Shown piece after piece: positions 2,072 to 61,131 of a stretch of 64,000 nucleotides of DNA. Position 1 is the stretch's first letter; each line of letters begins with the position of its first letter. Below the pieces are notes generated by a model, which did not search any database, was not told where the DNA came from, and was given only the letters and a program-made list of their open reading frames with translations. Source of the DNA: an uncultured bacterium (GTDB lineage Bacteria > Acidobacteriota > Aminicenantia > UBA2199); contig CBFDCR010000004.1 in the NCBI GenBank assembly GCA_965603365.1, positions 21,260 through 85,259 of the forward strand. Direction: 5' to 3'. The position numbers were made by a program, and so were the translations under genes.

Positions 2072-3451
2072 ATGGCATTTAAGAAAAACATATTGTGCAT
2101 CGGCGCCGGATACGTCGGCGGCCCCACCATGTCGGTGATCGCGCTCAAATGCCCCGAATACAGAATCGAGGTGGTGGACATCAATCCCGAGAGAATCCGG
2201 CAGTGGAATTCCGATAAACTCCCGATTTTTGAACCGGGACTCGACGAAATCGTCAAACAGTGCCGGGGTAAGAACCTCTTCTTCTCCACCGACATCAATA
2301 AAGGTATCCGGCAGGCGGCTATCATTTTTGTCTCCGTAAACACCCCCACCAAGACCTTTGGCGAGGGTGCGGGCATGGCTTCGGATATGCGCTACTGGGA
2401 ACGAACCGCCCATCAAATCCTGGAAAATGCCGACAGCGATAAAATCATCGTGGAGAAGAGTACCCTGCCGGTGAGAACCGCCGAGGCCATGGAAAGAATA
2501 CTCAAAGCCGGTACAGGCGATATTCACTTCGAAGTGGTGTCCAACCCGGAGTTCCTGGCCGAGGGCACGGCCATCAACGATCTGCTCTACAGCGACCGGG
2601 TGCTCATCGGTTCCCATCAAAGCGAAGAGGGCATTGCCGCTGCCCGGCAAATTGTAGAAATCTATACCCACTGGCTGCCCCGGGATAAAATCATTACCAC
2701 CAATTTATGGTCGTCGGAACTCTCCAAACTGGTGGCCAATGCCTTCCTGGCCCAGCGGATCTCGTCGATCAATGCCGTGTCCGCCCTGTGTGAACAGACG
2801 GATGCCGATGTCTCGGAGATCGCCTATGCAGTGGGCACCGATTCCAGGATCGGCTCAAAATTCTTGAATGCCAGTATCGGGTTTGGCGGCTCCTGCTTTA
2901 AAAAGGACATCCTCAACCTGGTTTACATCGCCCGGAGTTACCACTTAAACGAAGTGGCGGACTACTGGGAAATGGTGGTCCGGTTGAATGAATACCAGAA
3001 GGCCCAGTTTGTGCGAAAAATCGTCCGGGCCATGTTCAATACGGTGGCGGAAAAGAAAATCGCCCTGTTTGGCTTTGCCTTCAAGGCCAACACCGGCGAT
3101 ACCAGGGAATCGCCGGCCATCACCATCGCCAAAAAGCTGCTGGAAGAGAAGGCCAAAATCGCCATAACCGATCCCAGGGCCCTGGACAATGCCCGGGTGG
3201 ATCTGCGGGGAATCGATGCCCATGTGCAGTACGAAATCGACCCTTACAAGGCTGCCGAAGGGGCCTGCGGCATCGCCGTGGTTACCGAGTGGGAGGCATT
3301 CAAGGACCTCGATTACCGGAAGATATTCCAGTCCATGCAAAAACCGGCCTTTATCTTCGACGGCAGAAGTATCCTGGACCACCAAAAACTGTATCAAATC
3401 GGTTTTAACGTTTATCCTCTGGGTCGCGCAGCCATGACCCATTTTAAATAA
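2072..3451 (+). CDS. ugd: UDP-glucose 6-dehydrogenase
   Basis: N-terminal NAD-binding CIGAGYVGGPT, catalytic-Cys region GFGGSCFKKDILNL, ~460 aa typical length. Confidence 0.85.
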   Translation: MAFKKNILCIGAGYVGGPTMSVIALKCPEYRIEVVDINPERIRQWNSDKLPIFEPGLDEIVKQCRGKNLFFSTDINKGIRQAAIIFVSVNTPTKTFGEGAGMASDMRYWERTAHQILENADSDKIIVEKSTLPVRTAEAMERILKAGTGDIHFEVVSNPEFLAEGTAINDLLYSDRVLIGSHQSEEGIAAARQIVEIYTHWLPRDKIITTNLWSSELSKLVANAFLAQRISSINAVSALCEQTDADVSEIAYAVGTDSRIGSKFLNASIGFGGSCFKKDILNLVYIARSYHLNEVADYWEMVVRLNEYQKAQFVRKIVRAMFNTVAEKKIALFGFAFKANTGDTRESPAITIAKKLLEEKAKIAITDPRALDNARVDLRGIDAHVQYEIDPYKAAEGACGIAVVTEWEAFKDLDYRKIFQSMQKPAFIFDGRSILDHQKLYQIGFNVYPLGRAAMTHFK

Positions 3452-6006: not shown

Positions 6007-6279
6007 TATGGGGGTCATTTGGTCGGGGATGGGGATGATTTCTGCGCTTATGGGAATGGTTTTGTCCGTTATGGGGACGGTTTTGCCGCTTATGGGAATG
6101 GTTTTGCCGGGTATGTGGACCGTTTCGGAGGGTATGGGAATGGTTTTTCCCCTTATGGGGATGATTTTTCCGGCTATGGGGATGGTTTCGCCCGTTATGG
6201 GAATGATTTTGCCCGCTATGTGAATGGTTTTGCCGGGTATGGGAATGGTTTTGCCGCTTATGGGAGTGATTTTTCCGCA
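6007..6279. repeat. 21-bp tandem repeat array A (13 units, consensus ~TATGGGAATGGTTTTGCCGCT)
   Basis: TATGGG motif recurs at 6007, 6028, 6049, 6070, 6091, 6112, 6133, 6154, 6175, 6196, 6217, 6238 and 6259 with an exact 21-bp period; lies in the convergent intergenic region between the B3/4 gene and the 6316-7374 gene. Confidence 0.9.
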
Positions 6280-6315
6280 CTCCCGGGGGCGGGCTGGGGA
6301 AGTGGTGACAGGGGA

Positions 6316-7374
6316 TTAATACACGGTGAGGTTGAATTGGGGGAGGAGTTGTTGGAGGACGTAGAGGCGGTGGTACCAGGCGGCACGGATAAATCGGCAG
6401 GCATCGGATTCCCGGGCAAACGATCGGTCCGCTTCGATGTATTTGAGCCGGGCCACCTCCCAGTGGTATTTGTCATAATTGACACCGATATCGATGCGAC
6501 TGGGGGGAAACAGCTCGCCATCCCGGATGGCCTGCTTCCACCGCTTCACCCGCTCCGCCTTGTCTTCAGATTCAAAGCCGATGATCGCCTTTACCGGGGC
6601 CTCAATATCCGGCCACTGCCGGCGGGTCCTGTCGTCGGCATACTTCCTGGCCTTCTCGGCAAATTGGCCGAAAAAGCGGTGCAGTTCCCTGGCACCCTCC
6701 AGGAAATCGCCGGCATTGTTCCTCGTCACCTTGCCGCCCGACAGCGCCGCCGACTCCGGCTCATACTCCCAGCTCAGGAAAGGGGTATCCGGGTAACTGT
6801 CCACCGAGCCGTGTCCCACCGGCACCAACTCGGCAAACACACCGGCATACTTTTCCAGTTTGGCGGCAATATTCTGCAATACCGTGGTGTTGACCACATT
6901 GTGGGTCGTGATGGTGCGATTCTTCACCTTATTCCAACCGTGGGAGATGCCCACAAAGCCGTAATGGGCAAAGGTGTCGGCAAACACGTGGGCCACCACC
7001 CCGATGAGATGGGGCCAGAGGGGCCGATTCTTTTCAGCCAGGGTATCGGTGAGCATCTGCTGGGCCGGTCGGCTGTTTTTGCGGCAGGCCATACGCTCCA
7101 CGAAACTGCCGTCCGTCGGTTCATTGCCGGGCAGGAAGTGAAAGGGCACCCACACCTTCCACTGGTCCCCGGCCATGGCATTCTGGAAGTCCAGGGGCTT
7201 GTGGCTGGTCATGGTGGGCACGATGGCAAAATCCCTGGAAATCTCGACCTCATCGTCTTCGGTGGCATCATCGACATATTGGGAACAGTAGGCGATGATC
7301 CGGGCCGCCTTATCCTGGATACCGGCAGCCCGGGCCAACGCATACACCCCATAAAAATGCATATCAATCTGCAT
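6316..7374 (-). CDS. hypothetical protein, His/Asp-rich; possibly a metal-dependent hydrolase of the Zn-PLC/P1-nuclease-like fold (weak)
   Basis: Long ORF with host-like GC and a strong GGAGG RBS 6 nt upstream of ATG 7374. H near the N-terminus (MHFYGVYALARAAG), HVFADTFAH (H-x3-D-x3-H) and several other conserved-looking His/Asp/Glu. Fold assignment is from memory only. Confidence 0.55.
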   Translation of the reverse strand: MQIDMHFYGVYALARAAGIQDKAARIIAYCSQYVDDATEDDEVEISRDFAIVPTMTSHKPLDFQNAMAGDQWKVWVPFHFLPGNEPTDGSFVERMACRKNSRPAQQMLTDTLAEKNRPLWPHLIGVVAHVFADTFAHYGFVGISHGWNKVKNRTITTHNVVNTTVLQNIAAKLEKYAGVFAELVPVGHGSVDSYPDTPFLSWEYEPESAALSGGKVTRNNAGDFLEGARELHRFFGQFAEKARKYADDRTRRQWPDIEAPVKAIIGFESEDKAERVKRWKQAIRDGELFPPSRIDIGVNYDKYHWEVARLKYIEADRSFARESDACRFIRAAWYHRLYVLQQLLPQFNLTVY

Positions 7375-7402
7375 ATTGTCCCTCCTCGTTATATTTTTTT
7401 AT

Positions 7403-8953
7403 TCATTTATTTTTTATTTTATTATGCGCTTCGGATAACGCCTCATACCAGATAAGACCTTCGGGGACGGATTTCCGTTCTTTATCAACACCTATAATAT
7501 TTATTCCCTCTTCTAACTCCAATCGCAGTTTATTCCTGTATTCAATCATTAATTCATCGGTATCCAGGCCCTTATGTTCACCAGTATAATGAAAGATAAA
7601 AATTTGTTTGTTCTCATCTTCTATAAGTGATCTAAACATACCGTTAATATGACCATCATCGGTATTAAATCCATACCCAATGACACAAATCACATCAGAT
7701 TTCCTGAATTCATCGTATAATTTAACATATCTTTCTGACATTCTTACGGAAGTCAAAGGTTTGATGCCGCTTTGAGTAAACAAAAAGGGAACCGTTATAT
7801 GATCGCCCTTTGTTAATTTCTCAACCTTTACAATCTTATTTAAATATGGATCATAGAAATCCCTAACAGATCCGTTCAGAAAAAATACATCTCTTTTAGT
7901 AACCTCTTCAATAAAGGTATTGTAATTTGTAGTCCCAATGGTTTTAATATCAAACAGGAATTTATCCTCCAAAACGTCATGATAATAACCTGGTCCCGCT
8001 TTACATCGTTCTATATATTTTTTAGCTATTTCGTAAATATAACGCCTGACAGTATGCAAAAAGATGGCAATTTTACAAAACTTTGCCCAATCAGTCTTGG
8101 GACTGTACAAATATCTCCAGTAGCTATCGATCAAAGATTGATAATCTAATGCCTTTGCATAGAGATCCTCTAAAATCATCTTCCCGAATTGGATGATAAT
8201 GTTTTCATCAGACCCTGTTGGGAAATTAATGAAACTCTCTGACACGATATAATCCAAACCTTCCAAACCCGTACGCCTGTAATCCAGAGAGAAGATACTT
8301 TCAAACTCATCAAAAACATCAATCCCAGGTGGCGTTTTAGCGAAGACTCCATCATTCAATCGGTGAATTAAGGCTTCTCCACAGGAACCGATTAACAATT
8401 CCAATACAGCTTTGACTATTTTCTTGACCTCAACCCTGAATTGTTTACTAATCCCTGAAGTTTCGAGAATATTCAACAATGCAGAAAAATAACTGCTACC
8501 GAAAATTTTATTATAATCACCTAAGCTTGTAGATAAGGCAATTAACTGTGTGTATAATTTTGAACCAAACTTTATATGGGTAATATTTTCAAAGCTTTCC
8601 TTTACTTTGTTCCCTCTCTCACTAAAACTATTCGCATGCCCCTTTACATTTCTATCAAAATCATTTAAATAATTCAAAATAACATCCCGTTTGTTTTCGA
8701 GACTGCCTTTTACTAAAGATTCTAAATGAGATTTCCCGAATGCTGAAACAGGTTTCTTTAAATATCCCAAAGGTAGCCAGTGGGATGCATAAATAGAACC
8801 CTCGGCTACCATTTTTCGTTTTTCATTAAAATCATTTTTATCTCCACTAACATCCATTCTAAATATTTCCAATGCAAATTTTCCACCGGACGGAAGCCCA
8901 TAAGACATCTCCGCCCCTGCGCCGAAAAAAAGGGCCAATGTTGGTCTTTCCAT
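7403..8953 (-). CDS. SIR2-like domain protein (SIR2_2 / 'DSR-like' NADase family), 516 aa
   Basis: N-terminal LALFFGAGAEMSYGLPSGGKFALEIF matches the GAGxS...GLP motif at the start of SIR2_2 domains. Later VICVIGYGFNTDDGHINGMF matches the C-terminal IGYSF.D motif. Low GC (~40%), GAGGAG RBS, 21-bp gap from the upstream membrane-protein gene. Confidence 0.75.
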   Translation of the reverse strand: MERPTLALFFGAGAEMSYGLPSGGKFALEIFRMDVSGDKNDFNEKRKMVAEGSIYASHWLPLGYLKKPVSAFGKSHLESLVKGSLENKRDVILNYLNDFDRNVKGHANSFSERGNKVKESFENITHIKFGSKLYTQLIALSTSLGDYNKIFGSSYFSALLNILETSGISKQFRVEVKKIVKAVLELLIGSCGEALIHRLNDGVFAKTPPGIDVFDEFESIFSLDYRRTGLEGLDYIVSESFINFPTGSDENIIIQFGKMILEDLYAKALDYQSLIDSYWRYLYSPKTDWAKFCKIAIFLHTVRRYIYEIAKKYIERCKAGPGYYHDVLEDKFLFDIKTIGTTNYNTFIEEVTKRDVFFLNGSVRDFYDPYLNKIVKVEKLTKGDHITVPFLFTQSGIKPLTSVRMSERYVKLYDEFRKSDVICVIGYGFNTDDGHINGMFRSLIEDENKQIFIFHYTGEHKGLDTDELMIEYRNKLRLELEEGINIIGVDKERKSVPEGLIWYEALSEAHNKIKNK

Positions 8954-17442: not shown

Positions 17443-19233
17443 ATGAAAAATATCAGGAATTTTTCCATTATCGCCCATATCGACCACGGTAAAACCACCC
17501 TATCCGACCGACTGCTGGAAATCACCCACGCAGTATCAAAGCGAGAAATGCAGCAGCAGGTTCTGGATTCCATGGAGCTGGAAAGGGAGCGGGGCATCAC
17601 CATAAAATCCCATTTCGTACGGTTGAAATATCGGCACAGCGACGGCCAGGAATACATTCTGAACCTGATCGATACCCCCGGTCATATCGACTTCAATTAT
17701 GAAGTCTCCCGATCTCTGGCCGCCTGCGAAGGGGCCTTGCTGGTCATCGACTCCACCCAGGGGGTCGAGGCCCAGACCGTGGCCAACACCTATCTGGCCA
17801 TGGAAAACGACCTGGTATTGATCCCGGTGATGAACAAAATCGACCTGCCCAACAACGAACTGGAAAAATCTCTCGACCAGATGGAGAACATCATCGGCAT
17901 TGGCCGGGAAGAGGCCCTGAAAGTCAGCGCCAAAACCGGTCAACACGTGGATCAAATTATTCCCGCCATCATCCAGCGGATACCGCCTCCCCAGGGAGAC
18001 CCTCAAAAACCATTGAAAGGGCTGGTTTTCGATTCCTGGTTCGATTCCTACCGGGGGGTCATCATCCTGGTTAGAATCATCGACGGCATATTAAAAAGAG
18101 GGGGCAGAATAAAATTTCTCTCCAACAATGCCGAATACGAAGTCAACGAACTGGGGGTTCACACCCCCAAACCCATGCCCCTGAATCAATTGTCTGCCGG
18201 AAAAGTGGGCTACATCATCGGCAGCATCAAAAACATCGCCGAAGTTAAAATTGGCGATACCATTACTCTGGCCAGGGAGCACCGGGTCACGCCGCTGCCG
18301 GGTTTTAAAGAACCACAGCCCATGGTCTTTGCCGGGTTTTACCCCGGCGAAGGCACCAGTCATGAGGAATTACGGGAAGCCTTTGAGAAGCTCACCCTCA
18401 ACGATTCTTCCCTAACCTATGAACCCGAAACTTCGCCGGCCTTGGGCATCGGTTTCCGCTGCGGATTCCTGGGGCTCCTGCACAAGGAGATCATCCAGGA
18501 ACGGCTGGAACGGGAGTACAACCTCACCATTGTGACCACTGCCCCATCGGTGAGATACCGGGTGACCACAAGCAAAGGAGATATCTTCGAAATCGAATCC
18601 CCCGCCCAACTGCCGCCGCCGCAAAATCTCCAGAAAATTGAAGAACCCTATATCGAAGCCATTTTCCTCACCCCCGAAAAATATCTGGGCAATATACTAA
18701 AATTACTCCAGAGCCGCCGGGGGATCCACAAGAAGATGGATTTTATCAGCGCCCAGACCATCTATTTAACCTACGATCTTCCCTTAGCAGAGGTTCTGTA
18801 CGACTTCTTTAACAAACTCAAATCGATTTCCCAGGGCTATGCCTCCTTCGATTACGAATTCAAAGCCTTCCGGGAATCTCCCCTGGATAAACTGGATATA
18901 TTGATCAACCAACAGCCGGTGGATGCCTTCTCTTTAATCGTCCACAAGGATAAAGCCTACGCCATCGGCAACCAGTTGACCTCCAAAATGAAGGCGCTGA
19001 TTCCCCGGCAGTTGTTCGAGGTGGTCATCCAGGCGGCCATCGGCAAACGGGTGATTGCCAGGACCGTGGTCAAGGCGCTGCGAAAGAATGTGCTGGCCAA
19101 ATGCTACGGCGGGGATGTGACCCGGAAGATGAAACTCCTGGAAAAGCAGAAAAAGGGCAAAAAACGGATGAAACGGATCGGCAAGGTGGATATCCCCCAG
19201 GAGGCTTTCCTGGCCGCCCTCGACCTCGAATAA
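17443..19233 (+). CDS. lepA: elongation factor 4 (LepA)
   Basis: G-domain [27 protein letters not shown]; LepA-specific C-terminal domain; ~596 aa. Confidence 0.95.
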
Positions 19234-19242
19234 AGAATACGA

Positions 19243-19450
19243 GAAAAAAGTACCGGTACGCGGGAGATGAGTACCGGGACTTAAAGGATGTGTACCGGTA
19301 CTCGAATCATATGTACCGGTACACGAAGGGTGAGTACCGGGACACAAGGGATGGGGAGCGGTACACAGAGGGTGTGTACCGGGACACGAAAAAAAAGTAC
19401 CGGTACTCAAAGGACGAGTACCGGTACTCGGAAGGTGAGTTTCGTGAAGC
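19243..19450. repeat. 21-bp tandem repeat array B (~10 units, consensus ~GAGTACCGGGACACGAAGGGT, with palindromic core GTACCGGTAC)
   Basis: GTACC recurs at 19250, 19271, 19292, 19313, 19334, 19376, 19397 and 19418 at an exact 21-bp period, with degenerate units at 19355 and 19439; lies in the convergent region between lepA and hutI. Confidence 0.85.
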
Positions 19451-19461
19451 GGTTGAAGTAT

Positions 19462-20742
19462 TTATTTGTCATAGACCAGTTGATGGTTTTTGACCACCAC
19501 TTCGCCTGATTTAATGACCGTGTGGATGGGGTTGATGCCTAAGTGGTAGGCTAAGTAGCTGTAGTCGGGGATGTCCATGAGCAGGACATCCATCCTCTTG
19601 CCGGGGGCAAAGGAGCCGACCCGGCGGTGGCGATCCACCGCATAGGCGGCATTGATGGTGACGGTGTTGATGGCCTCCTCGATGGTGAGGCCCATCTGGA
19701 AGATGCCTAAGTGGAAGATAAACAACTGGGAGGAGATCATGGAACTGCCGGGATTAAAATCACTGCCCAGGGCCACGATGCCGTTTTGCTCGATCACCCG
19801 GCGGATGGGGGCGTATGCCTTCATCTTCAAGAAGAAGGAGACCCCCGGCAGGAACACGCAGGCGGTATCGGAAGCAGAGATGGCCTCGATCTCCTCGGCG
19901 GTCATGGCGATGAGGTGCTCGGCGGATACCGCCTTTTTTTTGACCGCCAGCAGCGCGGCCCGGTTGGAGGTGAACTCGTCGGCATGGATCTTGAGCTTAA
20001 AACCCTGCTTCTGGGCCTCATCGAGGAAGTAGGCCGCCTCGTCGTAGGAGAAATAGCCCTCTTCGCAGAAGATATCGACAAATTCGGCCAGCTCCCGTTT
20101 CCTGACCTCCGGCATGACCTGCCGCACCAGGAACTCCAGGAACTCCCGGTTGCGGCCCCGGTAGTCATCGGGAATCTCGTGGGCCCCCATGAAGGTGGGA
20201 ACGACCGCCACCGGGTGAAAGGCATTGACCGCCTGAATGACTTCCAACTGTTTGATCTCGGTCTCCATGTCCAGGCCGTAGCCGCTCTTGGCTTCGCAGG
20301 TGGTGGTGCCGGAGAGCAGGATGTGATCCAGCCGATTTTCGCTGGCCTTGACCAATTCATCGATATCGACCTGCCGGGTCTGGCGCACCGTGCCCCGGAT
20401 GCCGCCGCCTTTGCGGGCAATCTCCTGGTAACCGACCCCCTGAAGTTTCTGGCGAAACTCGTCCTGGCGGGTACCGGCAAAGGGGAGGTGGGTGTGGGGG
20501 TCTACAAATCCGGGAAAGGCGACAAAATCGGAGCCGTCGATGACCACCGCTCCTTCAGCTAAGGTACAACTCTTTTGAAAATCCTCTTCAAAACCGATAA
20601 AGGTAATGTTTTCGCCGCTGGCCCCCAGCCAGACGTTGTGGGAGACCTTGATGGCGTTCAATTCACTGCCCCGCACCACCTGGTCGTCGGCGGGGCTGAC
20701 CAACTCTTTAATATTTTTAATTAAGGTAGTAATTTCAATCAT
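19462..20742 (-). CDS. hutI: imidazolonepropionase
   Basis: Amidohydrolase motifs GFVDPHTHLPFAGTR, ...GYQEIARKGGGIRGTV..TR typical of HutI, and an HADE metal-binding region. Confidence 0.8.
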   Translation of the reverse strand: MIEITTLIKNIKELVSPADDQVVRGSELNAIKVSHNVWLGASGENITFIGFEEDFQKSCTLAEGAVVIDGSDFVAFPGFVDPHTHLPFAGTRQDEFRQKLQGVGYQEIARKGGGIRGTVRQTRQVDIDELVKASENRLDHILLSGTTTCEAKSGYGLDMETEIKQLEVIQAVNAFHPVAVVPTFMGAHEIPDDYRGRNREFLEFLVRQVMPEVRKRELAEFVDIFCEEGYFSYDEAAYFLDEAQKQGFKLKIHADEFTSNRAALLAVKKKAVSAEHLIAMTAEEIEAISASDTACVFLPGVSFFLKMKAYAPIRRVIEQNGIVALGSDFNPGSSMISSQLFIFHLGIFQMGLTIEEAINTVTINAAYAVDRHRRVGSFAPGKRMDVLLMDIPDYSYLAYHLGINPIHTVIKSGEVVVKNHQLVYDK

Positions 20743-36894: not shown

Positions 36895-37010
36895 ACCCCC
36901 AAATAAAACAATCAAAGACACTCGGAAATTACTGAAATTACTTCCTGTCGAAAAACTGGTGCCCGAAAATTTGCCCGTTCCTTTTTACGGCCCTCAAATA
37001 TTTTTGTCCA

Positions 37011-37220
37011 GGGGTTGGGAACAATTTTTTAGGCATTGGCAATGATTTTTTAGGCGTTGTGAATCGTTTCCGAGGCGTTGTGGATGATTTTTTAGGCATT
37101 GTGGATCGTTTCGGAGGGGTTGGTAACGGTTATTTAGGGGTTGTCAATCACTTCTTAGCAGTTGGGAACCGTTTTTTAGTGCCCGGGAATGAGTTCTTAG
37201 GCAACGTGTGTCCTTAAATG
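37011..37220. repeat. 21-bp tandem repeat array C (10 units, consensus ~GGCGTTGTGAATGATTTTTTA)
   Basis: Units begin at 37011, 37032, 37053, 37074, 37095, 37116, 37137, 37158, 37179 and 37200. The plus frame encodes GVGNNFL/GIGNDFL/GVVNRFR... heptads but has no start codon. Confidence 0.85.
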
Positions 37221-37476
37221 AACGAATGGTAAGCGTTAAGGAGTGTTTTTTTGCTGACCGGTAAACGAGAAATAAATTGAACTCTTCCTCCTGAAAATTT
37301 AATATGGCTATATCAATCTTAAACGCAGGCTGAAGATAAAAAAAAATTTTCCCCTTTGCAATTAACGCTATCCTGTATTATAATCTTACTTAGAACGGAA
37401 ATTTAGAAAATTCATTTTTCACAGGTAACAAAAAAATGATCGAAACAAATAAGTATTCATTCATAAAGGAGGCAAG

Positions 37477-50399: not shown

Positions 50400-50777
50400 C
50401 TATAAATGCTCGATGATCTCATCGATTAACTCCGAAATGTCCGGCAAAACAGCTTTAATGGGTTCTCCGCCCTTTGGATGTTTGTGTTCTTTAAATCCTG
50501 GATCGGGCTTATGGGCGGCATTGTCATAACGAAAGATGCAATTGCCCTCCCGATCCTGGTAATGATATGCATAACTGACTCTTTCGATTCCAAATCTACC
50601 ATCAAGGTATTCCTTTACTTGTAATTCTGAGCCGTTGATTAAGATAATTCTGACATTGATAATTGCCTGTTTGTTGGGCCTTATTTCTTCGTTAATTTCG
50701 ATAGTTTCCGCATAGCCATAATCTTCAAGCCTTTCAAGATGTGAGCGAAGAGAGTGAAAATAATCATGAAGAAACAT
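50400..50777 (-). CDS. hypothetical protein, downstream gene of a two-gene toxin-antitoxin-like pair
   Basis: 125 aa; overlaps the upstream 98-aa ORF by 14 nt; low GC; family not recognised with confidence. Confidence 0.45.
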   Translation of the reverse strand: MFLHDYFHSLRSHLERLEDYGYAETIEINEEIRPNKQAIINVRIILINGSELQVKEYLDGRFGIERVSYAYHYQDREGNCIFRYDNAAHKPDPGFKEHKHPKGGEPIKAVLPDISELIDEIIEHL

Positions 50778-51060
50778 GTTGGATGCTTTTTAGGGTTGTC
50801 AGTCGTTCATTTAGTTTGCTGAAGAGGTGGTATTCACCGGCCCATTCTACATACTCCATGTCCTTATCCTCTAAGTCTTCGGCAGTCCACTCTTTTATAA
50901 ACCTTTTTGAGGAAATATTGTATTTCTGCTCAAACTTCTTGAGTCGTCTCAAGGCAATATCTAAACTGTGCTGCACCCTTAAAGTTTCTAATTCAATGGC
51001 CTCTCTTAACACTTTTGATGCCTCTTGCGGCCGATTGGTTCTAAGCAAAATTTGCGCCAT
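50764..51060 (-). CDS. hypothetical small helical protein, upstream gene of a TA-like pair
   Basis: 98 aa, overlaps the downstream gene; predicted helical. Confidence 0.4.
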   Translation of the reverse strand: MAQILLRTNRPQEASKVLREAIELETLRVQHSLDIALRRLKKFEQKYNISSKRFIKEWTAEDLEDKDMEYVEWAGEYHLFSKLNERLTTLKSIQHVSS

Positions 51061-51154
51061 GACTGCCTCCAGTATAACATCGAATTCAGACAGTAGTATA
51101 TTATAATAAATTCAAGCTTATTTCAACCGCTCTTCCCGGCAATTTAGAACAGAT

Positions 51155-51235
51155 TTTTTGCCTGGCACCGCAACACACGAAACCCGAAGTAGCTGCCCCT
51201 GAAATTGGGGTAGAAGTCGTAGAAGCGGGTAAACA
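51155..51235 (-). repeat. ~80-bp remnant of an FGE/SUMF1-domain gene 3' end (copy 1; direct repeat of 52240-52315)
   Basis: The minus strand encodes ...RFYDFYPNFRGSYFGFRVLRC*, parallel to the C-terminus ...CYFVPHFWNDYAFGFRVVRCRL* of the 52239-52610 pseudogene; both share a core CACAACACGAAACCCGAAG. Confidence 0.6.
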
Positions 51236-51344
51236 AATAGGGGACATACAAATAATTGACATTAAAGATTAGTTATTGACAAAAGATGGATTTGCATCTA
51301 TATTATTATTGAATAAATTAGATGCACTATTGGAGGTTTATCGG

Positions 51345-51593
51345 GTGATTGCGATAGAATTTGAAACAGAATCAAAGGCCGGTATGATTAAAATCCCGGA
51401 GGAGTATCAAAAAATGATGGGGGGAAAGGTAAAAATCATCATGTTGAAAGAGGCAGAAAATGTTGACTCCCGGAAAAAAGACCAGATTTCCAACATAAAA
51501 CAATGTTTGAGGGAGATTCGAGAGAAAAACATATTTGCCCACATCAAAAATCCGGTAGAATGGCAGCGAAATCTTAGAGATGAGTGGCAGTAA
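51345..51593 (+). CDS. vapB: AbrB/MazE-fold antitoxin (VapB-like)
   Basis: GTG start 51345 with a GGAGG RBS; SpoVT/AbrB-like MIKIPEEYQKMMGGKVKIIMLKE; overlaps the vapC start by 14 nt. Confidence 0.6.
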   Translation: MIAIEFETESKAGMIKIPEEYQKMMGGKVKIIMLKEAENVDSRKKDQISNIKQCLREIREKNIFAHIKNPVEWQRNLRDEWQ

Positions 51594-52002
51594 AGTTTTA
51601 ATCGACAGCAATATCATCATTTACCTTTCAAAAGGAGTGCTGGAAATAGAAGAAATCGCCAATCACTATGATGAACTCTGTATCTCAATTATCACCTATA
51701 TGGAAGTATTGGGTTTCCAATTTCCGGATCAAGACGAATTAGAAACGACAAAAAACTTATTGAATCATTTTAAAATTATCTATATCAATAGGGAAATAGC
51801 CGAGAATGTAATTTCAGTTAGACAAAAGAAGACAATAAAACTGCCTGATGCGATCATCCTGGCAACCGCAATATTTTTAGAAGGTGATCTATGCACCAGA
51901 AATGAAAGTGATTTTTTAAACATTTCGGAAAACATAAGAATCGTGAATCCCTTCAAACAACCAAAAACATTGACAGACACAAAAACAGACGCATCCAGTT
52001 GA
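51580..52002 (+). CDS. vapC: PIN-domain ribonuclease toxin VapC
   Basis: LIDSNIIIY (Asp-1), ...YMEVL..., DAIILATA, TRNESDF acidic quartet. Confidence 0.85.
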   Translation: MSGSKVLIDSNIIIYLSKGVLEIEEIANHYDELCISIITYMEVLGFQFPDQDELETTKNLLNHFKIIYINREIAENVISVRQKKTIKLPDAIILATAIFLEGDLCTRNESDFLNISENIRIVNPFKQPKTLTDTKTDASS

Positions 52003-57806: not shown

Positions 57807-59939
57807 TCAGCGGATATTTAGACGTTTTAGCGAATGGTAAAATGTGCCGGCAAAAAGGTCATCCCCATTAACAGTCAGGCAGCTAACAGGAACCGCCAGA
57901 TCTCCAACCTGTTCCCAGCCGGTGCCGATAAGGCGATAGACTGCGCCGCTGTTGGGTAGAGGTCCATGGGTGATGCCCAAATACAGACAGCCGGTTTCGG
58001 GATCCATCGTAATGCCTTCGCCATTATAGTAATCCCAATTCAGTTGTGGGGGCAGCCCCTCTGACATTGGAAACCAGTTCTCGCCCCGGTCCGTACTTTT
58101 ATAAACAGGTGATGGGGCAGGAAATTCGGGGTTTTCTGATTGAACACCGATATAAACAATATCAGGCTCAAAAAGATCACCAAAAATCGGTCCTAAATGA
58201 CTGTTGGCAGGGTTATTCCAGGTCCTCATCCAGGTTTCACCGCCATCGCTGCTCCGATAAAATCCATACCCCTGACCGGCGGACACACAGGCATAAACGA
58301 TTTCAGGGTCTAGCGGATCTAAAGCCAGTTCCAGTTCAGAAGCGATGATGGAGCTAAAGTTGAGGCCCTCAAGCCTGGCCCACGATGTACCATGATCGAC
58401 GCTTTTATAGATCCTGGCCTGTCCCTGGCCATATGGTGTTGAGCCGCTGATGGCAACGTAAATTTCCCCCGCTCCGTGAACCACATCGGTTACCTGGACG
58501 TAAGCGGTATCGGGAAGCAGATGACTGATATCTTCCCAGTAATATGCGCCATCGCCGCTTCTAAAGAGTCCCTGCTCCGGCTGCAAATTGTAATTGGCCC
58601 CGGCATAAATAGTATTGGCATCGTGGGGATCAATGGCCAATGAGGTTACCCACAGATTCTTTAACCCTTCGAGGCGTCCCTGCCATTGGGAGCCCGATAC
58701 TCTTTTGAATACGCCGCTGTGACTGCCGGAGGCATAGATGACATCAGGTCGAAGTGGATCAGCCACAATGTCGGATATGGGAATACCGGTAATGCCCAGG
58801 TTTTTTTCTTTCCAGGAATCACCCTTGTCTACGCTCTTGTAAACGCCATTGTATTCGTTGCCGTAATAACAGGCGGCATATACACATCTATCCTGGTCTA
58901 CCAGCACATCCCGGATGTATCCCTTTTCAAGACCTATATTTCTCAATTCCCACCATTCGCCCGCATCGATGCTCCGGTACAAATTCCTGAAATCACCATG
59001 GACACTATGATAGCCCCCTGCATAAACAATATTCGTATCTTCCGGATCGATTGCGATTGAAACGACGTAGTCTCCTTTATGGCCGGCATCGTATTGGAAC
59101 CAGTAATCTCCGCCATCCTTTGTTTTATAAATCTGGGGCTGCTCATAGAGGTGAAAACCGGCATACAGGATCTTTGGATTCCCGGGCTCCATCGCGATGT
59201 CCCGGGGCGTGCCGGGAAGACCATTACCGATTTGTGTCCAGGTCTGTCCGCCGTCATTACTCCTATGTACGAGGTCGCCGGAAACATAGAACGTATAGTG
59301 GGTAAGACCCGGTGCGATTTCAATATCGGTGGCGCTGCGATAGCCGTAAGACTCTACCGGCGTCCAATGCTGGCCATTATCCCCGCTCTTAAAGAGGCCG
59401 TGTGTTCTACTCCACTCCATTCCAGCCTGACCATAATATACAAAACCGCTGGCCGGATCGACCACGAGGCAGTAGGCGGTAGTGAGCGGTATAGCCGAGG
59501 CGATAAATTCCCAGGTGTCCCCCGAATCGGTGGAACGCCAGACCCCGCCCGGCACCTGGCTTACGGCATAGACCAGTTCCGGGTGATGGGGATCGACGGC
59601 CATATCCTTTATCCAGAGGGGCATTTCCTCTCCGAGACCATAATTAACCTGCTTCCAGCTTTCCCCGCCATCGATGGTGCGATATATCCCACTTCCATAG
59701 GTGCCTAAAAATAATCTGCCCGGGTTTTGAGGGTCCACCGCCAGGCAGACGCCGTCACAGCCCCAGGGGCCTTCAGCCTGCCAATACTCATCTTTAATGT
59801 CCGATTCCCTGTCACTTTTTTCCTGGGGTAAACGAATCACTGCGGCATTTGACCACACAATTGTTAGAATAAAAATGACTCCGATTAAACCGGTAAAAAA
59901 GATTTTTTTCTTCATGTTGCCTCCTTTTTTTATTACCAT
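57807..59939 (-). CDS. secreted BNR/Asp-box (sortilin/Ycf48-like) beta-propeller repeat protein
   Basis: Signal peptide; many S.DGG.TW / S.D.G.TW repeats (TIDGGESWKQ, STDSGDTWEF, SGDNGQHWTP, SNDGGQTWTQ, TKDGGDYW, SVDKGDSW, SVDHGTSW, SSDGGETW, STDRGENW). Confidence 0.75.
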   Translation of the reverse strand: MVIKKGGNMKKKIFFTGLIGVIFILTIVWSNAAVIRLPQEKSDRESDIKDEYWQAEGPWGCDGVCLAVDPQNPGRLFLGTYGSGIYRTIDGGESWKQVNYGLGEEMPLWIKDMAVDPHHPELVYAVSQVPGGVWRSTDSGDTWEFIASAIPLTTAYCLVVDPASGFVYYGQAGMEWSRTHGLFKSGDNGQHWTPVESYGYRSATDIEIAPGLTHYTFYVSGDLVHRSNDGGQTWTQIGNGLPGTPRDIAMEPGNPKILYAGFHLYEQPQIYKTKDGGDYWFQYDAGHKGDYVVSIAIDPEDTNIVYAGGYHSVHGDFRNLYRSIDAGEWWELRNIGLEKGYIRDVLVDQDRCVYAACYYGNEYNGVYKSVDKGDSWKEKNLGITGIPISDIVADPLRPDVIYASGSHSGVFKRVSGSQWQGRLEGLKNLWVTSLAIDPHDANTIYAGANYNLQPEQGLFRSGDGAYYWEDISHLLPDTAYVQVTDVVHGAGEIYVAISGSTPYGQGQARIYKSVDHGTSWARLEGLNFSSIIASELELALDPLDPEIVYACVSAGQGYGFYRSSDGGETWMRTWNNPANSHLGPIFGDLFEPDIVYIGVQSENPEFPAPSPVYKSTDRGENWFPMSEGLPPQLNWDYYNGEGITMDPETGCLYLGITHGPLPNSGAVYRLIGTGWEQVGDLAVPVSCLTVNGDDLFAGTFYHSLKRLNIR

Positions 59940-60019
59940 TAATAAAATCCTCTGATTAAAATATTATATTAATTTAACAAGAATTTCAAGCCCCCAAAAT
60001 GGTGTCGAGGAGTTATCCC

Positions 60020-60380
60020 GAAATTTTAAATAGGATTAAAAATCTTTGCCTGGCCTCAATCGCCAGGCTGTCTCATTAATTTTCCGGGCTGCCGTCTCCG
60101 TCCCCGGTTCTCCTCCCTTTTAACCCCAATGACGACTTGAGGGTGATGGAGGCCTCCTTAACGATGTTAATGATAACCCGAATGAAACGGCTGATTACTC
60201 CCACTTCCTCTGTCCTGCTTCCCGCTATTTCTCTTAATTCTTTGGGCTTAACACTATCTTTTTTCTCTCTCTCTTTAAAAGTAGACATTGTATATCCTCC
60301 ATTTTATCACTTTATCTTATAAGTTAAAGTGAAACGGATTAGGGCCAGGCAAAAATCTTTAATCCTATTTAAAATTTCGG
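60020..60380. repeat. ~285-bp element bracketed by 38-bp near-perfect inverted repeats (MITE- or inverton-like)
   Basis: CCGAAATTTTAAATAGGATTAAAAATCTTTGCCTGGCC (60020-60057) versus GGCCAGGCAAAAATCTTTAATCCTATTTAAAATTTCGG (60343-60380) match as a reverse complement at 36/38 positions. Confidence 0.8.
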
Positions 60381-60468
60381 GGTAACTCCTGGGAAGGAAA
60401 TTTCTTCTTGACTTTTGAACCTAAAACTCTTAATATGAAAACAGATTTCCAGATAAGGAGAAAAAAGG

Positions 60469-61131
60469 ATGAAGCGAGTCTTAATCTTTACAACGATATT
60501 GATACTGTTTTTTTCTTTCTCCACTTTATTGGCGGCAAAGAAGAAGACCTATTATGTAAATATTTTACTGGATAAGGTGACCCGGGAATCGCTGTTGACA
60601 GAAGAGTCCCAGGTGCCAACCGGGCAATCGTACCGCGATGATTTGATTCAGATCACCTGGAAGCCGGAACCCAAAAAAATCGAATTCGAACTCAAGAATC
60701 ATTCGGATAAGCCCATTTCTATTATCTGGCAGGATAGTTATTTCATCGGCCGGGACAACGTTCAGCAGAAGATTGTTCCTGCCAACGTTAAACCGGACGA
60801 TATGCAAAAGCTGCTCCCGCCCCTGGAGATTCCCGCCGGGGGAGAGATCGCCGACTGGTTTTTCCCCGAGCGATATTACTCAAAGGAAAGCAAGCTGGAG
60901 GCCCGGCGGGATCTATCCGGTCGGATGACCCACTCGTTTACCGTCAGCGAATGGGTCAAAAAGCCCCTCTACACGAAAAAAGAGAAATTAAAAAAACCGG
61001 CTGACTTTGATTTTGCCGTTTATAAGACCGACCTGGAAAAGAATACTTTCGAGGTCTTTTTATTGATAAGGTCGGGCTTAGATAATTATGAATATCATTT
61101 CTTTTTCAAGCCCGACGTAAAAGAAAAATAG
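60469..61131 (+). CDS. secreted/lipo- hypothetical protein
   Basis: Signal peptide MKRVLIFTTILILFFSFSTLLAA; AGGAG RBS; no recognisable domain. Confidence 0.55.
   Translation: MKRVLIFTTILILFFSFSTLLAAKKKTYYVNILLDKVTRESLLTEESQVPTGQSYRDDLIQITWKPEPKKIEFELKNHSDKPISIIWQDSYFIGRDNVQQKIVPANVKPDDMQKLLPPLEIPAGGEIADWFFPERYYSKESKLEARRDLSGRMTHSFTVSEWVKKPLYTKKEKLKKPADFDFAVYKTDLEKNTFEVFLLIRSGLDNYEYHFFFKPDVKEK

Follow-up and report, generated by a model that had tools for sequence, protein, structure and literature searches.

The long inverted repeat that lies between two divergent operons in the window (the whole 64,000-nucleotide stretch of DNA that was analysed) probably arose from two small-gene cassettes arranged head to head, one of which would have lost its gene by internal deletion. 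The cassette on the minus strand appears intact, with a leader, the ribosome-binding site GGAGGA, an ORF of 70 codons, a terminator-like hairpin, and a conserved 33-nt end. Its counterpart on the plus strand would have lost about 245 nt, from the ribosome-binding site to the 5' half of the terminator, leaving a leader fused to the 3' flank with the deletion junction at 60336. With this conserved 3' flank at the end of each cassette, the surviving gene would now be enclosed by a 54-nt inverted repeat. The surviving gene itself would be transcribed leftwards and stop at the hairpin.

A repeat at this locus had been described from the letters alone as a pair of 38-bp arms, and it is confirmed as real and far beyond chance, with no match of the 38-mer in 100 shuffled sequences. 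The right arm of this 38-mer lies where it had been placed (60343-60380, minus strand) and carries the 2 mismatches that were reported, while the left arm is at 60018-60055 (plus strand, no mismatches) and not at 60020-60057, an offset of 2 nt. After extension, the arms measure 54 nt each and are 91% complementary, with a 24-nt core over which they are identical. They stand 275 nt apart in a structure of 383 bp, which falls within the 553-bp gap separating the BNR gene on the minus strand from the 220-aa gene on the plus strand (Table 1). A second, short mirror-image pair sits on either side of the central palindrome CTTATAAG. The interior had been called AT-rich, which holds in a mild sense only: its GC content is 43%, compared to 50% for the whole window and 35-37% for the arms.

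Table 1. Coordinates of the features at the inverted repeat and of promoters near related arms (window positions unless a locus is named).
Feature	Position	Strand	Remarks
BNR/sortilin-Vps10-like secreted protein gene	57807..59915	-	outside the cassette
Sigma70-like promoter TTGAAA-17-TAATAT of the BNR gene	59961..59989	-	-35 begins 18 nt outside the left arm
Left arm	60008..60061	.	3' flank of the intact cassette: terminator loop, 3' half-stem, T-run, conserved 33-nt end ...TTTAATCCTATTTAAAATTTCGGGATAACTCCT (minus-strand reading)
Terminator-like hairpin GCCTGGC-GATTGAG-GCCAGGC, then AAAGATTTTT	60048..60068	-	begins 8 nt past the stop codon
70-aa small-protein gene MSTFKEREKKDSVKPKELREIAGSRTEEVGVISRFIRVIINIVKEASITLKSSLGLKGRRTGDGDGSPEN	60076..60288	-	member of a lineage-restricted family
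Shine-Dalgarno sequence GGAGGA	60295..60300	-	6 nt before the ATG (60288-60286); kept in the family alignment
Central palindrome CTTATAAG	60316..60323	.	symmetry axis between real leader (-) and ghost leader (+)
Ghost leader CTTATAAGTTAAAGTGA(AAC)	60316..60335	+	16/17 match to the real leader CTTATAAGATAAAGTGA
Right arm	60337..60390	.	same 3' flank on the plus strand: GATTAG-GGCCAGGC-AAAAATCTTT-AATCC...GGGGTAACTCCT
Sigma70-like promoter TTGACT-17-TAATAT of the 220-aa/TonB-receptor operon	60408..60436	+	17 nt outside the right arm
220-aa gene, no Pfam/NCBIfam match	60469..61131	+	outside the cassette
CarboxypepD_reg-Plug-barrel TonB-dependent receptor gene	61228 to window end	+	follows the 220-aa gene
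Arm flanks with a promoter 13-19 nt beyond the arm	window (both sides); L004 5308-5384; L005 762-838; L018 4161-4237		

The flanking genes are as the sequence-only reading had described them, encoding a BNR/sortilin-like protein on one side and a 220-aa protein followed by a CarboxypepD_reg-Plug-barrel TonB-dependent receptor on the other. The start of the BNR gene had been placed at 59939; likelier is the ATG at 59915, which lies behind AAGGAGG and opens a typical signal peptide (MKKKIFFTGLIGVIFIL...). Public assemblies call this gene from the ATG at 59939. The 220-aa protein found no significant match in the Pfam, NCBIfam, PHROGs, and PADLOC libraries. Elsewhere in the window, an accessory islet with toxin-antitoxin-like genes (50400-52002) lies between central-metabolism genes and an M23 peptidase gene; it includes a PIN-domain gene (51580-52002), annotated as such via the corresponding 140-aa gene in a related locus (L001).

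Two short ORFs are present between the arms, one of 70 aa on the minus strand and one of 61 aa on the plus strand. Both had been noticed and set down as dubious, and for the 70-aa ORF this doubt does not stand in the face of 23 family proteins and purifying selection. Among the full-length copies (the window, L004, L015, and L017), dN/dS is 0.13-0.23, and third codon positions hold an excess of changes (e.g., 8/5/19). The 70-aa ORF is thus, as judged from its pattern of substitutions, a genuine and conserved protein gene under purifying selection, and what had been taken for a short non-coding core is this gene. Selection looks relaxed in the shortened copies (L005, L018, and L019) when these are compared among themselves. 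The 3' half of the terminator-like hairpin and its T-run fall within the left arm, and the surviving gene presumably forms an independent translation unit that ends at this hairpin. A sigma70-type scan of the minus strand from 60289 to 60468 returned no convincing promoter for the 70-aa gene, which at other loci may be read from upstream.

The 70-aa protein has no significant match in Pfam, NCBIfam, PHROGs, or PADLOC. AlphaFold2 predicts, with low confidence (mean pLDDT 56), one amphipathic helix (residues 29-54) between charged termini, of which the N-terminal one is basic and the tail rich in Gly and Asp; no transmembrane-like stretch was found. A fold search with this model was dropped, its mean pLDDT being too poor.

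A search of 5.8 billion protein clusters yielded a family of 23 proteins of 40-107 aa, comprising the protein's own cluster and 22 relatives, with FKKREK...VGVF.RFIRVIINIVKDASITLKSALGLKGRKTGDGDGS as the conserved blocks of the alignment. A profile search of 1.84 billion representatives returned 8 matches only, so the family appears confined to a narrow lineage; the only long match among them (P0069) was rejected as a chance resemblance to a repeat protein. Neither the family-protein pattern nor an exact 23-mer of the arm matched any of 185,579 species genomes, and a conserved 21-mer of the ORF had no exact match in IMG/VR viral contigs. An exact 21-mer of the arm matched metagenome contigs 9 times, each time in unrelated AT-rich coding sequence.

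Copies of the cassette occupy unrelated genomic contexts. Two of them share one 74-kb contig, L004 adjoining cupin and peptidase C1 genes and L005 preceding a sugar-nucleotide operon. L015 and L016 have an MT-A70 methylase gene on one side and RadC/TonB genes on the other, and L015 includes a second, partial copy. L017 adjoins a type ISP restriction enzyme gene, and L018 and L019 are found in yet other contexts. L023 and L024 directly follow an excisionase-like gene and a tyrosine integrase gene. The organism of the window probably carries at least 3 copies, since one ENA assembly yielded both L016 and the window-like locus L001, and one JGI sample both L024 and the window-like locus L002. In L023, the excisionase-like helix-turn-helix gene and the 351-aa integrase gene (425-1712) stand immediately upstream of a cassette in the order 21-nt array, ORF, and full arm, on a contig that begins about 420 nt before the excisionase-like gene.

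Several side observations concern the makeup of these loci. Deletions in the family fall at short direct repeats, TTCGGGG at the 3' end of the ORF pairing with TTCGGGG in the arm (L005 around 735-762, L017 around 495-518). At some loci, the gene of a 158-aa, all-helical protein (L015 3028-3504) precedes the array and the small ORF, and L019 holds a decayed copy of it (2955-3257). The sequence AGGATGCCTC is common to the small ORF and this upstream gene, and their fusion is seen as the 68-aa protein P0023. The 158-aa protein belongs to a separate family of hypothetical proteins that also occurs in cyanobacteria and Anaerolineae. Its model is confident and all-helical (pLDDT 88); it found no fold match in the PDB at E < 0.9, no sequence match in the PDB, and no significant match in Pfam, NCBIfam, PHROGs, or PADLOC.

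Arrays with a 21-nt period lie directly upstream of the small ORF at 4 loci (L015 3560-3951; L017 1-256; L019 3319-3944; L023 1800-2056), each with its own palindrome (GCAGTTnnnAACTGC, TCTGACGTCAGA, GTTATAAC, and ACGTCAnnnnTGACGT), and neighbouring units can carry complementary changes (GTCAA..TTGAC vs GTCAC..GTGAC). We rejected these arrays as part of the cassette, as the window has 3 arrays of the same kind at a distance from any cassette. The first of these (19249-19440), between lepA (stop codon at 19233) and a convergent amidohydrolase gene that ends at 19462, has about 9 tandem units, mostly a 10-nt near-palindrome GTACCGG[T/G]AC (one being GGAGCGGTAC) followed by a variable 11-nt spacer; it forms one open frame of YRYxxxE heptads that has no obvious start codon. 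The second (6029-6278) lies inside an ORF (6019-7455) and encodes YGNGFAx heptads, and the third (37024-37190) is intergenic (36895-37476) with one frame of GVGNxFL heptads; the unit sequences of these two are alike (G[G/T]GAATG[G/A]TTTT). Taken over the window and the cassette loci, the 21-nt arrays look like a lineage-wide feature.

The two arms of the window acquire their meaning from the 3' flanks of the other copies. The terminal 13 nt of the family's 3' flank are GGGGTAACTCCTG, and this motif is found (with up to 2 mismatches) 3' of the ORF in L004, L005, L015b, L017, L018, and L023/L024. In L023, the 54-nt arm is complete and departs from the left arm of the window at 4 positions, and the outer 33 nt of the flank in L004 are identical to the right arm of the window. 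Across four arms, these outer 33 nt show 0-3 differences, compared to a synonymous divergence (pS) of 0.19-0.45 in the adjoining ORFs; at a pS of 0.38, no more than 1 difference in 33 nt would be expected with a probability of 3e-6. Because the 33-nt end diverges far less than synonymous sites across copies, the arm is best seen as a constrained, family-wide 3' end and not as a peculiarity of this locus. A full second arm is present in window-type loci only (the window, L001, and L002). L004 and L023/L024 have one full arm, on the 3' side only, and L005, L015b, L017, and L018 keep just the terminal motif on that side. In L019, an exact inverted copy of GGGGTAACTCCTG lies at 2651-2663, 1.35 kb upstream of the ORF.

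Nucleotide homology with L021, an ortholog locus without cassette, begins at window position 60390/60391, which is exactly the outer edge of the right arm. In 5 of 8 cases, the arm end is followed after 13-19 nt by an outward-facing sigma70-like promoter (17-nt spacer), an arrangement present in 2% of random 77-nt windows and 8.6% of AT-rich ones. Among the other arms, L015b has TTGACA-17-TAAAAA, just under the criteria of the scan, and the two promoterless arms face convergent genes. Our best guess is that the conserved outer 33 nt are a putative cis-acting cassette boundary or recombination site, a reading that we favour because they coincide with a synteny breakpoint, always stand at the cassette edge, and in one copy lie beside an integrase gene. 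A regulatory or insulating role is also possible and would fit with how often (5 of 8 arms) a -35 hexamer follows the arm at a distance of 13-19 nt. The comparison with L021 suggests that a promoter of this sort is part of the host gene, as it is present there without an arm, which weakens the regulatory reading. By informal inspection, none of the following fits the arm: an inward or outward sigma70, sigma54, or ECF promoter, an UP element, a dif site, or a Tn3-type end.

What points to a second cassette is the sequence inward of the right arm. From 60316, the plus strand reads CTTATAAGTTAAAGTGA-AAC-GGATTAGGGCCAGGCAAAAATCTTTAATCC...GGGGTAACTCCTG, a near-copy of the real leader ("ghost leader") that joins the terminator loop directly at 60336. 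In an alignment with the real cassette, 68 of 76 plus-strand bases (60316-60391) are matched by its start or its end, across a single gap of about 244-245 nt. This gap runs from the ribosome-binding site through the ORF and takes in the 5' half of the hairpin, and the remainder matches from the terminator loop to the end of the cassette. The ghost leader has AACGGA, the family consensus, at the place where the window's own leader has AATGGA. The arms of the window differ from each other at 5 of 54 positions and from the arm of L023 at 4-5 of 54. As they are no closer to each other than to L023, the duplication does not appear to be recent.

Two old paralogous cassettes and a later deletion in one of them would be the simplest reading of this locus, for which we infer the deletion history and observe directly the anatomy, the dispersal of the family, the coding selection, the constraint on the arm, and the positions of the promoters. 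A recent fold-back duplication or the terminal repeats of a transposon would fit the details of ghost leader and arms less well. The head-to-head history draws on one alignment, with a ghost leader of 17 nt, because the full two-arm arrangement occurs at one type of locus; the inverted GGGGTAACTCCTG upstream in L019 could instead point to complete elements with terminal inverted repeats. A search for a decayed cassette upstream of the L021 ortholog gave P = 0.026 in 1 of 6 tests, which is not significant after correction, and the relic was rejected. L021 5850-5897 is weakly collinear with window 60300-60354, the region of leader, ghost leader, and half-stem.

The position of the promoters bears on a different reading of the locus, in which the segment between the arms is invertible (as an inverton or by a homologous-recombination flip) and reorients the small gene or a promoter relative to the flanking operons. 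Long inverted repeats between divergent operons for surface or secreted proteins speak for this reading, the 24-nt identical core of the arms could support rare recombination, and a Logan contig of run ERR1811634 (L003) ends inside the right arm. We nevertheless consider it very improbable. The promoter prediction on both strands that had been proposed for the segment found no sigma70-like site within 60062-60336 (consensus scan, sigma70-type only), and the promoters of both operons are outside the arms. Because the BNR gene and the TonB-receptor operon each have a predicted promoter of their own beyond an arm, the repeat is not expected to act as an on/off switch for either. The operon promoter is moreover conserved in a relative that lacks the arm: at L020/L021, an 86%-identical 220-aa protein stands behind the same operon promoter next to a different upstream neighbour, with no cassette or arm.

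The assemblies likewise argue against inversion. The segment has the same orientation in the window, L001 (ENA), L002 (JGI), and the partial L003 (Logan), the last three of which differ from the window by a handful of point substitutions that include one within the right arm. Given these independent substitutions (5 of 54 positions between the arms, one more in L001/L002), the arms do not seem to be homogenised, which counts against inversion. The earlier statement that no recombinase gene is nearby agrees with our results: none was found among the scanned ORFs of the window, which lie outside 26.5-33.4 kb (the continuation of a minus-strand run of cell-division/Mur genes) and include cell-division and central-metabolism genes, and a tblastn search of the window with the tyrosine integrase of L023 gave no match. 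An enzyme encoded elsewhere in the genome might still act in trans. By our own reading, the Logan contig does not end where a crossover in the arm core would create a branch. Position 1 of this contig falls in the right arm, at window position 60349, although the sequence continues without a break in the ENA assembly of that run; the contig end could be a strain variant or a drop in coverage.

Another alternative, which we regard as unlikely though with more to recommend it than inversion, is that the window copy is a MITE-like, non-autonomous element, derived by internal deletion from a larger element with terminal inverted repeats and still mobilisable in trans. In the full element, inverted GGGGTAACTCCTG ends would enclose the 158-aa gene, an array of 21-nt repeats, and the small gene. 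The suspicion of a repeat or mobile element was borne out to the extent that this is a dispersed, multi-copy family with a conserved terminal sequence and many internal-deletion variants, and the terminal sequence is conserved well beyond the neutral rate. Further in favour of such an element are the inverted 13-nt motif of L019, which lies upstream of the decayed 158-aa gene, the array, and the ORF (chance expectation around 0.003 by our own estimate, with all loci searched), the coincidence of the arm end with the point where homology to the ortholog locus breaks off, and the location of copies among toxin-antitoxin, restriction-modification, RadC, and integrase genes.

Of the MITE proposal itself, the long terminal inverted repeats hold (54 nt, 91%); a target-site duplication, a non-coding core, and two-armed copies elsewhere do not. 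The proposed check for flanking duplications was negative, with no direct repeat of 2-10 nt at any plausible end (...ATGGTGTCG / arm...arm / GGGAAGGAA) and GGTGTCG and GGGAAGG as the flanks of the arms. The arm occurs on the 3' side only in L004 and L023/L024, with just the terminal motif in L005, L015b, L017, and L018, and the interior is a selected protein gene and not transposase debris. No transposase is associated with the family at the related loci, and no partner element with matching ends and a transposase was seen in about 200 kb of these loci. A ghost leader beside the right arm would also be unexpected for a simple terminal repeat.

We give least credence to the idea that the region is a structured RNA or a long hairpin acting at the level of RNA or single-stranded DNA, which had been kept as an alternative and is largely refuted. 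The predicted fold of the 411-nt region is strong (-63.6 kcal/mol, z = -6.5 vs shuffles), but it is a trivial consequence of the 54-nt repeat, which the z-score merely restates. Rfam returned no match for the region at E <= 1 and nothing of relevance for five related loci, where a spurious miRNA-precursor match on a palindromic array was the only one. Substitutions in the interior are codon-periodic and not pair-covarying, and the long stem is not conserved, as the other copies have no second arm.

The locus is mostly explained as a structural relic, and its residual novelty lies in the uncharacterised cassette and the conserved end. It also carries a caution for annotation: long inverted repeats around a short core between surface-protein operons would here be labelled an inverton or a MITE by predictors that consider the repeat only, though the repeat is probably neither and appears as a by-product of the arrangement and decay of a small gene family. 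The non-coding end diverges far below the synonymous rate, lies at a synteny breakpoint, and is usually followed by a host promoter 13-19 nt further on, a combination suggestive of a cis-acting site, so far unrecognised, with a role in recombination, insulation, or regulation. More speculatively, and in our estimate rather improbably, the 70-aa gene and the 33-nt end might together form the smallest unit of a selfish or mobile cassette, as yet undescribed, of an uncultured sediment bacterium; site-specific recombination at GGGGTAACTCCTG would move it, or it would act as an addiction-type module. A tyrosine integrase as in L023 would be the candidate enzyme and the cassette would tend to land just upstream of promoters, and the two-armed copy of the window would then be an excisable or invertible form.

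The locus resembles several known systems in part. MITEs such as the Correia elements of Neisseria and the Tn3-derived TIMEs share with it an intergenic unit of about 380 bp, long terminal inverted repeats, a dispersed family with internal-deletion variants, and a position often just upstream of promoters. What sets it apart from MITEs is that no target-site duplication flanks it, that elsewhere in the family a full arm is found at one end only, that its core is a gene under purifying selection, and that no matching transposase was found. Invertons and invertible promoters, such as fimS and the promoters of Bacteroides capsule and SusC/D-like genes (PMC11602134), similarly have inverted repeats that flank a few hundred bp between surface-protein operons. 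The locus differs from these in having no internal sigma70-like promoter, no nearby recombinase in the scanned ORFs, and one orientation in all assemblies, as well as in its operon promoters outside the repeats and in its 54-nt arms, which are the 3' flank of a gene family.

The type I toxin-antitoxin repeat families of E. coli (LDR/ldr-rdl, QUAD/ibs-sib, and hok/sok) provide a closer parallel in several respects. Like these, the cassette is an intergenic repeat of a few hundred bp with a small ORF and a strong ribosome-binding site, occurs in several copies per genome of which some are inactivated by deletion, and has an untranslated flank that is more conserved than synonymous sites. In contrast to type I toxins, the 70-aa product is charged and has no transmembrane segment, its one predicted helix being amphipathic. 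Neither the scan nor inspection by eye revealed a sigma70-like site in the arm facing inward, as the promoter of an antisense RNA would, and there is no sequence relationship to the known families. In integrons, genes are carried as ORF-attC cassettes, and in the pdif modules of Acinetobacter inverted XerC/D sites flank a gene with no recombinase nearby. The cassette resembles both in that its small ORF has a conserved non-coding site behind it, where the cassette ends. It differs in that inspection of the arm by eye revealed no attC-like internal palindrome or 11-6-11 dif-like site, that no integron integrase is present, and that only L023 (with L024) lies next to a tyrosine integrase gene. 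Although it shows none of the testable hallmarks of these systems, the locus would by analogy seem to stand closer to small-gene repeat families or site-delimited cassettes than to a MITE or an inverton.
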